Translations under genes and position numbers: made by a program
The notes under the pieces: model-generated
The model's input: only the letters and a program-made list of their open reading frames with translations
The model's database searches: none
Told to the model about the DNA's origin: nothing
Shown: positions 1,053-7,232 of the stretch, piece after piece
Layout of the letters: every line of letters starts with the position of its first letter
How positions within the stretch are numbered: the first letter of the stretch is position 1
IMG/VR virus record: IMGVR_UViG_2541047820_000004
DNA length: 7,232 bases
From: a virus
Taxonomy: Duplodnaviria > Heunggongvirae > Uroviricota > Caudoviricetes
Direction: 5' to 3' (one strand)

Positions 1053-4000
1053 ATGGGTAAAGGCAGCAGTAAGGGGCATACCCCGCGCGAAGCGAAGGAT
1101 AACCTGAAATCCACGCAGTTACTGAGTGTGATCGATGCCATCAGCGAAGGGCCGATTGAAGGTCCGGTGGATGGATTAAAAAGCGTGCTGCTGAACAGTA
1201 CACCGGTGCTGGACAGTGAGGGGAATACCAACATCTCCGGTGTCACGGTGGTGTTCCGGGCAGGTGAGCAGGAGCAGACACCGCCGGAGGGATTTGAATC
1301 CTCCGGTTCCGAGACGGTGCTGGGTACGGAAGTGAAATACGACACGCCGATCACCCGGACCATCACGTCTGCAAACATCGACCGTCTGCGCTTTACCTTC
1401 GGTGTGCAGGCACTGGTGGAAACCACCTCAAAGGGTGACCGGAATCCGTCGGAAGTCCGCCTGCTGGTTCAGATACAACGTAACGGTGGCTGGGTGACAG
1501 AAAAAGACATCACCATTAAGGGCAAAACCACGTCGCAGTATCTGGCCTCGGTGGTGGTGGATAACCTGCCGCCGCGACCGTTCAATATCCGGATGCGCAG
1601 GATGACACCGGACAGCACCACAGACCAGCTGCAGAACAAAACGCTCTGGTCGTCATACACCGAAATCATCGATGTGAAACAGTGCTACCCGAACACGGCA
1701 CTGGTCGGCGTGCAGGTGGATTCGGAGCAGTTCGGCAGCCAGCAGGTGAGCCGTAATTATCATCTTCGCGGGCGCATTCTGCAGGTGCCGTCGAACTATA
1801 ACCCGCAGACGCGGCAATACAGCGGTATCTGGGACGGGACGTTTAAACCGGCATACAGCAACAACATGGCCTGGTGTCTGTGGGATATGCTGACCCATCC
1901 GCGCTACGGCATGGGGAAGCGTCTCGGTGCGGCGGATGTGGACAAATGGGCGCTGTATGTCATCGGCCAGAATTGCGACCAGTCAGTGCCGGACGGCTTT
2001 GGCGGCACGGAGCCGCGCATCACCTGTAATGCGTACCTGACCACACAGCGCAAGGCATGGGATGTGCTCAGTGATTTTTGCTCGGCGATGCGCTGTATGC
2101 CGGTATGGAACGGGCAGACGCTGACATTCGTGCAGGACCGACCGTCGGATAAGGTGTGGACCTATAACCGCAGTAATGTGGTGATGCCGGATGATGGCGC
2201 GCCGTTCCGCTACAGTTTCAGCGCCCTGAAGGACCGCCATAATGCCGTTGAGGTGAACTGGATTGACCCGGATAACGGCTGGGAAACGGCAACAGAGCTT
2301 GTGGAGGACACGCAGGCCATTGCCCGTTACGGTCGTAACGTCACGAAGATGGATGCCTTTGGCTGTACCAGCCGGGGGCAGGCACACCGCGCCGGGCTGT
2401 GGCTGATTAAAACGGAGCTGCTGGAAACGCAGACCGTGGACTTCAGCGTGGGCGCAGAAGGGCTTCGCCATGTACCGGGCGATGTCATTGAAATCTGCGA
2501 TGATGACTATGCGGGTATCAGCATCGGCGGGCGCGTGCTGGCGGTGAACAGCCAGGCGCGGACACTGACGCTCGACCGTGAAATCATGCTGTCATCCTCC
2601 GGCACCACGCTGATAAGCCTGGTTGACGGAAATGGCAATCCGGTCAGCGTGGAGGTCCAGTCCGTCACCGACGGCGTGAAGGTGAAAGTGAGCCGTGTTC
2701 CTGACGGCGTTGCCGGATACAGCGTGTGGGGGCTGAAGCTGCCGACGCTGCGCCAGCGCCTGTTCCGCTGTGTGAGTATCCGTGAGAACGATGACGGTAC
2801 GTATGCCATCACTGCCGTGCAGCATGTGCCGGAAAAAGAGGCCATCGTGGATAACGGGGCGTACTTTGACGGCGACCAGAGCGGAACGGTGAACGGTGTC
2901 ACGCCGCCCGCGGTGCAGCACCTGACTGCAGAAGTCACTGCAGACAGCGGGGAATATCAGGTGCTGGCGCGCTGGGATACGCCGAAGGTGGTGAAGGGTG
3001 TGAGCTTTATGCTTCGCCTGACTGTGGCAGCGGATGACGGCAGTGAGCGGCTGGTCAGCACGGCCAGGACGACGGAAACCACATACCGCTTCAGGCAACT
3101 GGCGCTGGGGAACTACAGGCTGACAGTCCGGGCGGTAAATGCGTGGGGGCAGCAGGGCGATCCGGCGTCGGTATCGTTCCGGATTGCCGCACCGGCAGCG
3201 CCGTCGCGGATTGAGCTGACGCCGGGCTATTTTCAGATAACCGCCACGCCGCATCTTGCGGTTTATGATCCGACGGTACAGTTTGAGTTCTGGTTCTCGG
3301 AAAAGCGGATTGCGGATATCAGGCAGGTTGAAACCACAGCCCGCTATCTTGGCACGGCGCTGTACTGGATAGCTGCCAGTATCAATATCAAGCCGGGCCA
3401 TGATTATTATTTTTACATCCGCAGTGTGAACACCGTTGGCAAATCGGCATTTGTGGAGGCTGTTGGCCAGCCGAGTGATGATGCATCCGGCTATCTGGAT
3501 TTTTTCAAAGGAGAGATAGGGAAAACCCATCTGGCTCAGGAGTTGTGGACGCAGATTGATAACGGTCAGCTTGCGCCTGACTTGGCGGAAATCAAAACGT
3601 CCATCACGGATGTCAGTAATGAAATCACGCAGACCGTCAATAAGAAACTGGAAGACCAGAGTGCAGCGATCCAGCAGATACAGAAGGTTCAGGTTGATAC
3701 AAATAATAACCTGAACAGCATGTGGGCTGTGAAGCTGCAGCAGATGCAGGACGGACGCCTTTATATCGCGGGTATTGGTGCCGGTATTGAGAATACCCCT
3801 GACGGTATGCAGAGTCAGGTGCTGCTGGCGGCGGACAGGATTGCGATGATTAATCCTGCGAATGGCAATACAAAGCCGATGTTTGTTGGTCAGGGCGATC
3901 AGATATTTATGAATGAAGTGTTCCTGAAATATCTGACGGCTCCCACCATTACCAGCGGCGGTAATCCTCCGGCATTTTCCCTGACACCGGACGGGCGGCT

Positions 4001-4535
4001 GACGGCGAAAAATGCGGATATCAGCGGTAACGTGAACGCGAACTCCGGGACGCTCAACAATGTCACGATTAATCAGAACTGCCGGATTCTGGGAAAACTG
4101 TCAGCCAACCAGATTGAAGGCGATATTGTTAAAACGGTGGGAAAAGCCTTTCCGAGAAATAGCAGTTATGCCAGCGGTACAATAACGGTCACGGTGTACG
4201 ATGACCAGGCTTTTGACCGTCAGATAGTAATCCCCCCCGTTCTGTTTCGCGGTGGTAAGCATGAAAACTTCAACAGCAACAACCAACAGTCATACTGGTA
4301 TTCAACCTGTAAGCTGCAGGTGCTGAAGAACGGACAGGAAATCTTTCAGCAACCCGCGACGGATGTCAGCAGGGTATTTTCATCAGTCATTGATATGCCT
4401 GCCGGACACGGCCATGTCACCCTGACTTTCAATGTTTCTTCATATGGTGCAAATAACTGGACGCCAACGACCAGTATCAGCGACCTTCTTGTTGTCGTGA
4501 TGAAGAAATCAACAGCCGGTATCAGTATCAGTTGA
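1053..4535 (+). CDS. J: Host specificity protein J (central tail fibre / tip attachment protein), 1160 aa, with a divergent C-terminal receptor-binding region
   Basis: ATG at 1053 preceded by GGAG at 1041-1044; TGA at 4533-4535. The N-terminus ([54 protein letters not shown]…) and about the first 820 aa match lambda gpJ by recall. From about nt 3515 (aa ~821) the sequence diverges, with conserved islands (MWAVK…, [34 protein letters not shown]) and a different extreme C-terminus. Position after K and I is the expected synteny. Confidence 0.95.
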
Positions 4536-4554
4536 ATTTTAAAACCCAAATTCG

Positions 4555-4582
4555 GGCACCAGAAATGGTGCCTTTTTTATTT
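4555..4582 (+). terminator. Rho-independent terminator candidate downstream of J
   Basis: Read directly: stem ggcacc (4555-4560), loop agaaat, stem ggtgcc (4567-4572), immediately followed by ttttttattt (4573-4582). It starts 20 nt after the J stop. Confidence 0.6.
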
Positions 4583-4593
4583 GTGGAGTGAAT

Positions 4594-6651
4594 ATGGCAG
4601 TACAGATTTCAGGTGTGCTGAAAGACGGTGCAGGAAAACCGATACAGAACTGCACCATTCAGCTCAAAGCAAAACGTAACAGCACCACGGTTGTGGTAAA
4701 CACGGTGGCCTCAGAAAATCCGGATGAAGCCGGGCGTTACAGTATGGATGTTGAGTATGGCCAGTACAGCGTTATCCTGCTGGTTGAAGGTTTTCCGCCT
4801 TCACATGCCGGGACCATCACCGTGTATGAAGATTCTAAGCCGGGGACGCTGAATGATTTTCTCGGTGCCATGACGGAAGATGATGTCATGCCGGAGGCAT
4901 TGCGTCGTTTTGAGGTAATGGTGGAGGATGTGGCACGCAACGCTGAAGCCGCCTCTCAGAGCGCAGCGGCAGCAAAGAAATCAGAAACAGCAGCGGCATC
5001 GTCCAGGAACGCGGCGAAAACATCAGAGACGAATGCAGGTAACAGCGCGAAAGCGGCAGCTTCTTCAAAAACAGCCGCACAAAACGCAGCAACAGCGGCA
5101 GAACGTTCAGAGACAAATGCCCGTGCGTCAGAAGAAGCCTCCGCAGACAGTGAAGAGGCTTCCCGCCGTAATGCAGAGTCAGCCGCTGAAAATGCCGGAG
5201 TCGCCACCACAAAAGCGCGGGAGGCTGCAGCAGACGCAACAAAGGCCGGGCAGAAAAAGGATGAGGCTCTGTCGGCAGCGACACGAGCTGAAAAGGCGGC
5301 AGACCGCGCAGAAGCCGCAGCGGAAGTGACTGCAGAGCCCTATGCGAATATAGTGCCGCCGCTGCCTGATGTGTGGATACCGTTTAACGATTCACTGGAT
5401 ATGATTACGGGGTTTTCGCCATCATATAAAAAGATTGTTATTGGTGACGATGAAATAACAGTGCCAGGCGACAAGATTGTTAAGTTTAAACGAGCTTCAA
5501 CAGCAACGTATATCAATAAGTCAGGCTCGTTTGTTGTGGCAGATGTTGATGAAGCCAGATTTGAAAAGTCTGGTTTACTGATAGAAGGGCAACGTACTAA
5601 TAATTTCATTAACAGTAATGCACCAGAAGCATGGAACTTTAATAATAAACGTCTTGATGTAAACAGTAATCTCGATCCATTTGGATTCAGCTATGGTGTT
5701 CTGACGTATAAAGATTCACCTGATACCGGGCCTGTGACGCTCATTTCAACAGGAACAGGTCGGGTTATCTCTGTGGAAAATGGTGACTCTGTTACAATTT
5801 CTGCCCGATTCAAGGGAAACGGAATCAGGGCGAGAATGCGCATATCGAAGCTGAATGATGATGGCGCAGGGAATACTTTTATAGCAGATGCGCTTCTGGA
5901 TTTGAGCAATCTGACATTAAAAAGTGATGTGCTTTCGTCATCTTTCGTAGTGGAAAACAGCGGATGGATATTCTTTCAGTCAACCTATAAATCTGATTCA
6001 TCACAAAATATATATGCCCGAATAGAAATGTATCAACAGGAAGGCAATGAAATTAAGGTCGGTGACAGTATATCAATGGCAACGCCTCAGGTTGAGAAAG
6101 GAACTGCTGCATCATCATTCATCATAACAGGGGGAACACCGGCAACGCGAGCCAGTGATATTGTGACAATCCCATTAAATAAAAACTGGGTGCGAAGGCC
6201 ACTGACAGTACTGACAGAGTGCAGTGTCTCATGGGACGTTATGCCAAATACCACGGGCGCAGCAAGGATATTAAATATTTCCACTACGGGAGACTCAACA
6301 GATATAGCTGACCAGAGTTATATGTATCTTGGTTTTATCTCAAAGGGCTCAAAAGCAATCATCACGAATGGAAAGGGAACTATGGCAGAGATAAAAAGTG
6401 ACATTGCTGTTTCAGGGCGAAAAAACATTATTGGCGGAAGGTTTAAAGAAGACGGGAGTCTGTCTGTAGTGGTAAATGGAAATATCGGTGGTGCATCGGT
6501 TTCGCCTTATAATGATACAAGATATCTTAATGGTTTCATGAATATAGGGGGGCAATCCTCCACCGGAGACAGGCATTTATTTGGACATGTCAGAAATCTG
6601 CGAATCTGGCACAGGGAATTGAATGACAGGCAATTAAAAGAGGCCGTATGA
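4594..6651 (+). CDS. stf: Side tail fibre protein (Stf-like): lambda-Stf-type N-terminal domain, Ala/Ser-rich fibrous shaft, and a distinct AT-rich C-terminal distal domain
   Basis: ATG at 4594 preceded by GGAG at 4585-4588; the listed ORF begins at an in-frame GTG at 4588, two codons upstream. Stop is TGA at 6649-6651. The N-terminus (MAVQISGVLKDGAGKPIQNCTIQLKAKRNSTTVVVNTVASENPDEAGRYSMDVEYGQYSVIL…HAGTITVYEDS.PGTLNDFL) matches my recollection of the lambda Stf N-terminal domain. It is followed by SETNA-type Ala/Ser-rich repeats as in lambda Stf, and from about nt 5340 by a different, lower-GC C-terminal region ending …GHVRNLRIWHRELNDRQLKEAV. Confidence 0.85.
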   Translation: MAVQISGVLKDGAGKPIQNCTIQLKAKRNSTTVVVNTVASENPDEAGRYSMDVEYGQYSVILLVEGFPPSHAGTITVYEDSKPGTLNDFLGAMTEDDVMPEALRRFEVMVEDVARNAEAASQSAAAAKKSETAAASSRNAAKTSETNAGNSAKAAASSKTAAQNAATAAERSETNARASEEASADSEEASRRNAESAAENAGVATTKAREAAADATKAGQKKDEALSAATRAEKAADRAEAAAEVTAEPYANIVPPLPDVWIPFNDSLDMITGFSPSYKKIVIGDDEITVPGDKIVKFKRASTATYINKSGSFVVADVDEARFEKSGLLIEGQRTNNFINSNAPEAWNFNNKRLDVNSNLDPFGFSYGVLTYKDSPDTGPVTLISTGTGRVISVENGDSVTISARFKGNGIRARMRISKLNDDGAGNTFIADALLDLSNLTLKSDVLSSSFVVENSGWIFFQSTYKSDSSQNIYARIEMYQQEGNEIKVGDSISMATPQVEKGTAASSFIITGGTPATRASDIVTIPLNKNWVRRPLTVLTECSVSWDVMPNTTGAARILNISTTGDSTDIADQSYMYLGFISKGSKAIITNGKGTMAEIKSDIAVSGRKNIIGGRFKEDGSLSVVVNGNIGGASVSPYNDTRYLNGFMNIGGQSSTGDRHLFGHVRNLRIWHRELNDRQLKEAV
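4981..5130 (+). repeat. In-frame periodic coding repeats (14-residue periodicity) in the Ala/Ser-rich shaft of the stf-like gene
   Basis: The motif tcagaRac… recurs at 4981 (tcagaaacagcagcggca), 5023 (tcagagacgaatgcaggt) and 5107 (tcagagacaaatgcccgt), at spacings of 42 and 84 nt. These encode SETAAAS / SETNAGN / SETNARA within an alanine-rich low-complexity segment spanning about 4930-5340. Confidence 0.6.
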
Positions 6652-6926
6652 AAGATTTAACTTTGAAGTTTCATGACAAACTGCAGTTTAAGGCCTTCCT
6701 GTCATCTCTTGGCTGGGCGGAAGATGAAGACCTCCAGAATAAACTGTTAGTTGATGAAATTGGTTTCACCTACACAGAAACAGGGGTAACTGAAGAGGGA
6801 GAACCTGTCTGTATCCGGAATGACGGTTATTTTGTCAACATTCGTATTCTTGATGACTTGTTTGATGTTTCTGTATTCTCTGATTATGTCGTGGAGCTGG
6901 AAACACCGCTTCGGGAATGGAGCTGA
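6648..6926 (+). CDS. Hypothetical small acidic protein (92 aa), translationally coupled to stf; possible fibre-associated chaperone or accessory protein, function unknown
   Basis: ATG at 6648-6650 overlaps the stf stop TGA at 6649-6651 (ATGA overlap). AAGAGG sits at 6638-6643, 4 nt upstream of the ATG. The ORF runs to TGA at 6924-6926. The product is rich in Asp/Glu with no obvious hydrophobic segment. I recognise no family; coding status rests on coupling, the Shine-Dalgarno and ORF length. Confidence 0.55.
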   Translation: MKDLTLKFHDKLQFKAFLSSLGWAEDEDLQNKLLVDEIGFTYTETGVTEEGEPVCIRNDGYFVNIRILDDLFDVSVFSDYVVELETPLREWS

Positions 6927-6938
6927 AAGGAGGAAATA

Positions 6939-7232
6939 ATGGATATAAGCCCCTTACTTCATGCACTTTGTGCTGTGGCTGCGCAGATACTGGTTGGTCT
7001 TTTTACCGGAAACTGGGCTTACGGAGCGATAGCCGGTTGTACGTTCTTCATTGCGCGTGAACATACCCAGGCAGAATATCGCTGGATTGAAATGTTCGGG
7101 CATGGCAAGCGAATGAATATGCCGTGGTGGGACGGTTTTGATCCGCGTGCTTGGGATGTGGCAAGCCTGATGGATTTTGCTGTGCCGGTGGTGGCGTGTC
7201 TGCTGGTCTGGCTGTTGGTTAATCGTGGGTGA
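6939..7232 (+). CDS. Hypothetical small membrane protein (97 aa, about 3 predicted hydrophobic helices)
   Basis: Strong Shine-Dalgarno AAGGAGG at 6927-6933, 5 nt upstream of ATG 6939; stop TGA at 7230-7232 at the window edge. Hydrophobic stretches LLHALCAVAAQILVGLF, AYGAIAGCTFFIA and FAVPVVACLLVWLLV suggest an inner-membrane protein. No family recognised. Confidence 0.6.
   Translation: MDISPLLHALCAVAAQILVGLFTGNWAYGAIAGCTFFIAREHTQAEYRWIEMFGHGKRMNMPWWDGFDPRAWDVASLMDFAVPVVACLLVWLLVNRG

Follow-up and report, generated by a model that had tools for sequence, protein, structure and literature searches.

A small gene with a strong ribosome-binding site ends a lambdoid fibre cassette

The stretch of DNA that we analysed (7,232 nucleotides; hereafter the window) corresponds to the late tail region of a lambdoid prophage of E. 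coli and contains the genes K (encoding a C40 peptidase), I, J (1053-4535), stf, orf92, and orf97. The gene of interest, orf97, occupies positions 6939..7232 of the + strand, starts with ATG, and encodes a 97-aa member of the family phrog_1443 that appears to be a three-helix membrane protein. Its TGA stop codon forms the final three bases of the window, as the initial annotation had noted; many IMG/VR prophage predictions terminate exactly at the orf97 stop codon, which accounts for where the window ends. In the 12-nt gap between the orf92 stop codon (6924-6926) and the orf97 start lies a Shine-Dalgarno sequence, AAGGAGG (6927..6933, + strand), that ends 5 nt before the ATG. Its predicted pairing with the 3' end of 16S rRNA (-11.6 kcal/mol) is the strongest in the window, the values for I, J, stf, and orf92 being -2.4 to -8.5 kcal/mol, so that the earlier description of this site as unusually strong is borne out.

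Several findings establish that orf97 is a real gene rather than a chance open reading frame. In particular, its product matches phrog_1443 with an E-value of 5.9e-58 (residues 1-96 aligning with the first 96 of the 97 profile positions), a word-indexed search returned 247 homologues, an exhaustive profile search returned representatives of 452 clusters at 50% identity, and dN/dS among the E. coli alleles is approximately 0.18. No RNA families or tRNAs overlap the gene.

The gene directly upstream of orf92 is the side tail fibre gene stf (687 aa; 4588..6651, + strand), whose product has a phage_tail_N N-terminus and a GTA_spike_fiber / Laminin_G_3 C-terminal domain. The gene is composite: the part encoding the N-terminal 260 aa, which comprise phage_tail_N and a stretch rich in Ala, has a GC content of 55%, whereas that encoding the C-terminal 427 aa (StfC) has a GC content of 41.7% (GC3 36%), a contrast that argues for a recombination junction between the two. 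(Note that in RefSeq stf is split or pseudogenised in loci L004, L005, and L006; in the window it is one intact open reading frame.) The ATG of orf92 (92 aa, phrog_1361; 6648..6926, + strand) overlaps the stf stop codon (ATGA), and the AT-rich composition of orf92 (41.9% GC) matches that of StfC. The orf92 protein probably takes the place of Tfa for this type of fibre, as a partner or chaperone specific to it. A jackhmmer search with orf92 found no relatives in the non-Escherichia loci, and no link to orf92 was found for the small genes (72-103 aa) that precede orf97 in Comamonas. The GC content of orf97, at 52.4% (GC3 51%), is close to that of the window as a whole (52.5%; J, 55.8%) and unlike that of StfC and orf92, which argues that orf97 has a history separate from that of the fibre; by its composition it resembles an independent module that joins cassettes of many kinds.

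Two further observations concern the cassette itself. A terminator-like hairpin followed by a T-run lies between J and stf (about 4554-4583 of the window; 8555-8584 of L004) and corresponds to an annotated terminator in phage 21, which implies that expression of the fibre cassette needs late antitermination read-through. Moreover, half of the close E. coli loci (L009-L088) have an insert of 0.7-1.1 kb between orf92 and orf97, and in two loci (L090 7918-8958 and L092 8286-8990) an extra gene encoding a 234- or 346-aa Peptidase_S74 protein is found there. An S74-type insert would be a second small fibre or spike in the same cassette; the Peptidase_S74 domain is an intramolecular chaperone.

orf97 belongs to a large and strikingly conserved family of small membrane proteins

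The orf97 protein is hydrophobic at about residues 5-23, 26-39, and 74-94 and polar at residues 40-73, and an AlphaFold2 model made with a 24-sequence alignment (mean pLDDT 90.2) has helices at residues 4-23, 26-53, and 74-96. The two agree with each other and with the initial annotation, which had described a small multi-pass membrane protein of 97 aa with about three hydrophobic helices and had quoted the sequence of the central loop exactly. Helix 1 (TM1, aa 5-23; 6951..7007, + strand) carries the near-invariant H8, and Q16, G20, and G24 are conserved in this region. Helix 2 (aa 26-53; 7014..7097, + strand) is hydrophobic over residues 26-39 and then continues as a juxta-membrane extension, which contains the invariant block R40-EHTQAEYRW-I50 (7056..7088, + strand). 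It is followed by an aromatic and charged loop (aa 54-73; 7098..7157, + strand) with conserved G56, R58, P62, W63, G66, and F67 and an invariant W72, and then by helix 3 (TM3, aa 74-96; 7158..7226, + strand), which has a conserved D79 and a near-invariant P83. The protein ends in ...LLVNRG. According to the helix boundaries of the model, H8, R40/E41, W72, and D79 would lie near the membrane face that bears the N-terminus and the loop. The counts of Lys and Arg (loop 5.4, N-terminal tail 0.6, turn 0.04, C-terminal tail 0.6) favour a cytoplasmic location of the conserved loop; the TMHMM call in the phage 21 record and the basic C-terminal tails of chromosomal copies (see below) favour a periplasmic one. 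Fold searches returned no informative match.

All family members in the 452 clusters are stand-alone proteins of about 90-110 aa. They occur in Alpha-, Beta-, Gamma-, and Deltaproteobacteria, with hosts that include Escherichia, Salmonella, Leclercia, Silvania, Aeromonas, Comamonas, Acidovorax, Pigmentiphaga, Chelativorans, Sphingomonads, Desulfovibrio, and Desulfuromonadaceae. Among 24 members with identities down to 53% the block R40 to I50 is invariant. Among 56 distant members (31-56% identity) R40, E41, and W72 are still invariant, H8, Q44, A45, E46, and P83 are conserved in at least 90%, and D79, Q16, R58, and P62 are strongly conserved. The resulting signature (H8, R40, E41, Q44, E46, W72, D79, and P83) is kept in three alignments, and all of it is present in the protein encoded by the window. 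At the nucleotide level the invariant block comes in 31 versions, with variation at all of its synonymous sites, which indicates that selection acts on the protein; a conserved DNA element as the cause of the invariance is thereby ruled out.

Of the complete E. coli genomes, 35% (1903 of 5426, including those of REL606 and Nissle 1917) carry orf97, with a median of 2 and a maximum of 7 copies per genome. The presence of as many as seven copies shows that orf97 hitch-hikes with prophages rather than being selected as a trait. Searches of Pfam and NCBIfam gave no accepted match. (A match to the PhoR N-terminal Pfam domain, with an E-value of 0.026 and a score of 15 bits against a cut-off of 27, is below threshold and reflects a generic resemblance between transmembrane hairpins.) The only public names of the family are 'hypothetical protein' and 'Ybl63', and in the literature on phage 21, sitABCD, exclusion screens, and genes linked to receptor-binding proteins (RBPs) we found nothing on it. 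The closest described relative is CPT_21_24 of phage 21 (OL657228, 'putative membrane protein'), a member of the same family that is 99% identical to orf97 and lies in the same stf-orf92-orf97 order; its annotators, who used HHpred, InterProScan, and TMHMM, gave it no function. Thus, orf97 is part of a large, unnamed, and strikingly conserved family of small inner-membrane proteins, one found in a classical phage and in about a third of the complete E. coli genomes that nevertheless has neither a name nor a Pfam or NCBIfam model. The phage 21 protein, gp24, offers a tractable experimental entry point.

Two host assignments should be read with care. A 2.8-kb contig binned as a Collinsella metagenome-assembled genome (L091) carries an E. 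coli-type orf97 (92% identity) and is probably a case of binning contamination. In addition, the 'Pantoea sp. 18069' loci (L104, L108, and L117) have a Comamonas-like architecture, with a giant J-like protein and a LamG fibre, which suggests a mixed assembly.

Phage copies lie directly behind receptor-binding cassettes of unrelated kinds

The phage copies of orf97 are almost always found directly 3' of an RBP cassette, from which -4 to +27 nt typically separate them, and in many unrelated phages the orf97 start overlaps or abuts the stop codon of the upstream fibre, spike, or chaperone gene. The stf-orf92-orf97 order is that of the lambdoid phages, and the phage-plasmid PhiR41_1 has an identical arrangement. 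In the P22-like phage JEP4 the tailspike stop codon overlaps the start of the orf97 homologue, with int next, whereas in P22-like 611R6 the order is tailspike, OafA acetylase, fibre remnant, orf97 homologue, and int. In P2-like phiHAP-1 a fibre gene and tfa precede the homologue (with an overlap of -4) and a sheath gene follows. Other homologues lie between a tail fibre gene and a Peptidase_S74 spike gene (the podovirus contig L008, which has a P22-type portal), after a beta-helix tailspike (the Leclercia prophage L113), behind a DUF4376 Tfa-like chaperone (L108), after J, a 529-aa gene, and a 153-aa gene (Acidovorax L111), and behind LamG-type fibres or giant J-like proteins (Chelativorans and Comamonas). 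In the Aeromonas jumbo phage ACP1 the homologue lies directly before a beta-helix fibre gene. The family is thus present in a 236-kb jumbo phage, and is also found in other phages that lack a temperate annotation. All of these phage homologues keep the signature residues; a divergent Desulfovibrio copy located before a Mu-type portal gene is the exception.

In L115 and L118 (region of about 7785-11054), from Comamonas nitrativorans and Pigmentiphaga, the homologue lies between the gene for a phrog_2889 protein and avd of a diversity-generating retroelement (DGR). From its position, the phrog_2889 protein is probably the Mtd-like target of the DGR, and the orf97 homologue is thus located inside a DGR cassette.

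The RBPs that adjoin orf97 homologues are of mutually unrelated types. A LamG / GTA-spike domain is encoded upstream of orf97 in Escherichia, Comamonas, 'Pantoea 18069', and Chelativorans, and we entertained the idea that orf97 is specific to this fibre domain; we rejected it because other loci have unrelated RBPs.

orf97 resembles a terminal gene of the fibre cassette rather than a classical moron

The initial annotation had labelled orf97 a candidate moron. According to this explanation, orf97 would be expressed from its own promoter in the repressed prophage and would bring about lysogenic conversion, altering the surface of the lysogen or excluding other phages. The positions of the homologues in JEP4, 611R6, and phiHAP-1 accord with it, and the view that this is a place for cargo holds up, as the tailspike-to-int interval of P22-like phages and the tfa-to-sheath interval of phiHAP-1 are known cargo slots. 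Also in its favour are the difference in GC content between orf97 and the adjoining StfC and orf92, and the existence of solitary host copies under selection. The GC content of orf97 is nevertheless that of the phage backbone.

We looked for the transcription signals expected of a moron. Between stf and orf97 a consensus scan, which has limited power, detected no promoter-like site on the + strand, the total number of matches being that expected from shuffled sequence, so that the upstream promoter that the initial annotation had proposed looking for did not appear. No terminator (a hairpin with a T-run) was found after the orf97 stop codon, and the only terminator-like site on the + strand in the scan is the one after J. 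Among close E. coli viral loci with enough upstream sequence, a sample biased to close relatives, orf92 is upstream of orf97 in 78 of 78 and the fibre C-terminal domain in 77 of 78. In contrast, the sequence 3' of orf97 falls into 10 unrelated clusters among the 34 loci with downstream sequence. The constancy of the fibre and orf92, the variety downstream, and the scans together argue that orf97 is not a classical moron and place the boundary of the variable cargo just 3' of it. Further evidence against independent transcription comes from the start/stop overlaps with upstream late genes in many lineages, and the presence of homologues in the jumbo phage and in phages lacking a temperate annotation does not sit well with a lysogenic role. 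The moron label, which implies independent transcription and variable presence, is thus not one that we would keep, and we regard the explanation behind it as unlikely. Judged from sequence, orf97 has the character of the fibre cassette's final gene and would be part of the late transcript.

The initial annotation had also proposed that further cargo be sought downstream, and such cargo is present. The genome that matches best, at 99%, is that of E. coli DETEC-P881, where the prophage is located at icd; there sitDCBA is found on the opposite strand 91 nt after orf97, and the same holds for phage 21. In strain AVS0969 the stf-orf92-orf97 block is followed by genes for an HNH endonuclease and an AAA ATPase (a candidate defence system). 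A cargo hotspot directly 3' of orf97 is seen at 9583-12047 of L005 and 11325-14774 of L004, and in many phages it contains sitABCD.

The 3' flank of orf97 (11234-11330 of L004; 5295-5424 of L142) encodes a C-terminal remnant of Tfa, which marks the right-hand recombination junction of the fibre-cassette swap. In the Rac prophage of REL606 the stf-orf92-orf97 block is followed by such a Tfa remnant and then by pinR, which argues that the StfR C-terminus and TfaR were replaced there by cassette exchange.

Solitary chromosomal orthologues indicate that the family probably acts on the cell

Orthologues of orf97 are also found on chromosomes, where solitary copies have housekeeping genes as neighbours. 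Four Aeromonas species have a lone orthologue between pirin and RIO kinase genes, and in five Leclercia genomes an orthologue precedes a conserved Meth_synt_2 / periplasmic-binding-protein block and is itself preceded by a Peptidase_M3 gene (annotated in L101). In Alphaproteobacteria an orthologue adjoins ligA, pnp, or the gene for HerA. There are no phage genes around the solitary Aeromonas and Leclercia orthologues, and comparison of the syntenic copies gave dS values of 0.4-0.9 and dN/dS values of 0.09-0.25, indicative of purifying selection. That solitary orthologues are selected argues that the family acts on the cell and is not needed just for virion assembly; the initial annotation's judgement that a structural role in the tail is unlikely therefore stands. 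We consider it likely, with a probability of roughly three in four, that orf97 is a cell-acting accessory membrane protein that is neither a classical moron nor a part of the virion.

The solitary Aeromonas and Leclercia copies (L093, L095, L096, L100, L098, L101-L103, and L105) are longer than the phage copies by 8-18 residues at the C-terminus, an extension rich in Arg, Lys, and Ser. This basic tail may be a host-specific regulatory or topogenic element.

A tentative model in which orf97 modifies the envelope of the producing cell

The position rule, the residue invariance, and the selected host orthologues point to a conserved inner-membrane host target. In the model that we favour, orf97 would serve as an accessory protein of the inner membrane that is not part of the virion and whose conserved family spans the Proteobacteria. 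As the last gene of the RBP cassette it would be expressed along with the fibre genes on the late transcript, by way of a strong Shine-Dalgarno sequence in the window and of stop/start overlaps elsewhere. We infer that the invariant juxta-membrane RE..QAE..W surface, together with the polar pair H8/D79 near the same face of the membrane, would dock on a host component that is likewise conserved among Proteobacteria. The target would be in the producing cell's own envelope, and its function would be shut or altered while RBPs and progeny are made; as a result, secondary infection or DNA entry could be blocked, or a pathway of envelope precursors could be changed. That orf97 works by exclusion or as a shutter of the envelope in this way is a possibility that we put forward tentatively, and with some doubt.

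Small inner-membrane exclusion proteins have precedents in HK97 gp15 and T4 Imm. In addition, small receptor-blocking or exclusion genes are located by the tail or RBP clusters of several phages, namely cor (phi80, N15, and T1-like phages), llp (T5), Z/fun (P2), and the gene for gp15 (HK97). Cor and Llp are FhuA-specific lipoproteins of the outer membrane, and P2 Z/fun and HK97 gp15 are phage-specific. The position between tfa and the sheath gene that the homologue occupies in phiHAP-1 is the slot of P2 Z/fun. Unlike these proteins, orf97 has no lipobox, adjoins unrelated RBP types, and has chromosomal orthologues, and no homology to any of them was detected. Nor was homology to described exclusion or defence families detected with PHROGs, Pfam, or NCBIfam, and PADLOC gave 0 matches; the only PHROG matches obtained here were to two families that have no function assigned.

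A further precedent is SieA of P22, an inner-membrane superinfection-exclusion protein of 162 aa with three predicted transmembrane helices (PMC10883804). Like orf97 it is a small phage-encoded inner-membrane protein with three predicted transmembrane segments, and it acts on the cell rather than in the virion. SieA differs in being longer (162-164 aa), in being expressed from the prophage, and in being encoded elsewhere in the genome, and the two share no PHROG or Pfam match. Moreover, the SieA types are less than 30% identical (PMC10883804), and known exclusion proteins are fast-evolving and phage-specific, whereas orf97 is coupled to late RBP genes and its conservation extends across bacterial classes. 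It is this conservation that speaks most strongly against a conventional exclusion factor: the family keeps an invariant 11-residue block from one bacterial class to another, a pattern that suits an enzyme or a housekeeping partner at least as well as it suits an exclusion factor.

The O-antigen conversion genes (gtrABC of P22 and those for OafA/Oac) share the tailspike-int slot with orf97 in P22-like phages, and in 611R6 the orf97 homologue is one gene away from that for the OafA acetylase. However, orf97 has no similarity to GtrA (four transmembrane segments), GtrB, or acyltransferase_3 and, at 97 aa and with three helices, is too small to be likened to any of these.

A bolder version of the model is that a proteobacterial membrane-protein family was captured by tailed phages of every morphotype as a near-obligate companion 3' of their RBP genes and, by way of its invariant interfacial motif, switches a universally conserved envelope machine, or a pathway of lipid-linked precursors, late in infection. 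We rate this version as quite unlikely; if true, such a receptor-independent 'envelope shutter' would define a new class of proteins at the phage-host interface, one that a third of E. coli genomes encode. The identity of the target would explain a recurrent feature of fibre-cassette exchange, and could bring to light a mechanism of broad exclusion or else a small proteobacterial envelope factor that is new. Since swapped RBP cassettes usually carry orf97 along, it also has relevance for host-range engineering. Should orf97 be a neutral passenger or a minor modulator of lysis, the finding would be an ordinary one.

Other explanations

One alternative is that orf97 is a small membrane enzyme or lipid binder, in which H8, R40, E41, Q44, E46, and D79 would form a polar cluster near one membrane face and serve as a catalytic or ligand site for a lipid or a lipid-linked envelope precursor. 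Invariance of the protein at the level of single residues across bacterial classes, the conserved polar residues within transmembrane helices, and the retention of the gene on chromosomes in the manner of a housekeeping gene are what this explanation would predict. That a membrane enzyme can be very small is exemplified by DgkA, at 121 aa. However, orf97 matches no enzyme family or fold, and its chromosomal loci share no conserved metabolic neighbour, so that we find this explanation rather unlikely.

A role for orf97 as an accessory factor of the RBPs, that is, a membrane-anchored chaperone or tether for the maturation or loading of fibres or spikes, would account for its invariable adjacency and frequent translational coupling to RBP and tfa genes. 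It would likewise suit the REL606 Rac prophage, in which stf-orf92-orf97 stands in place of the StfR C-terminus and TfaR, and of the latter a C-terminal remnant alone is left. Although orf92-orf97 there fills the place of the lambda-type tfa gene, Tfa proteins are soluble whereas orf97 is a predicted integral membrane protein, profiles of Tfa, DUF4376, and Caudo_TAP gave no match to orf97, and in phiHAP-1 and L108 orf97 homologues co-occur with genuine tfa genes. Against such a role stands the diversity of the adjoining RBPs, which include LamG proteins, tailspikes of the P22 Head_binding type, Peptidase_S74 proteins, beta-helix proteins, a P2-type fibre that has its own Tfa, and a probable Mtd-like DGR target; a chaperone specific for partners so diverse would not stay so conserved. 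The selected solitary orthologues in phage-free chromosomal surroundings are a second objection, and a third is the composition of orf97, which is unlike that of StfC and orf92, apparently the true fibre-plus-chaperone pair. We consider it improbable that orf97 serves the RBPs in this manner.

Finally, we regard it as very unlikely that orf97 has a part in lysis, whether as a holin, an antiholin, or a factor that sets lysis timing. In favour of such a part, orf97 is small, late, and has several transmembrane segments, its Comamonas homologue in L007 overlaps the first gene of a cassette that ends in an Rz-like spanin, and in Acidovorax L111 the homologue is the sole membrane protein encoded upstream of the endolysin, which has an N-terminal signal-anchor. 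Against it, the lambdoid phage 21 carries orf97 and has its S21/R21/Rz lysis cassette elsewhere, L007 already has two candidates of the holin type with two transmembrane segments, the phage copies lack a charged C-terminal tail and match no holin family, and selected chromosomal copies and an invariant loop motif are atypical for holins. Lysis genes near orf97 were found neither in the window nor in phage 21, their adjacency being confined to the Comamonas and Acidovorax loci. In L111 there is no separate holin gene between the orf97 homologue and the endolysin gene; the region from 9417 to 10640 encodes the signal-anchor-like endolysin and then a 93-aa lipoprotein that is a candidate spanin.
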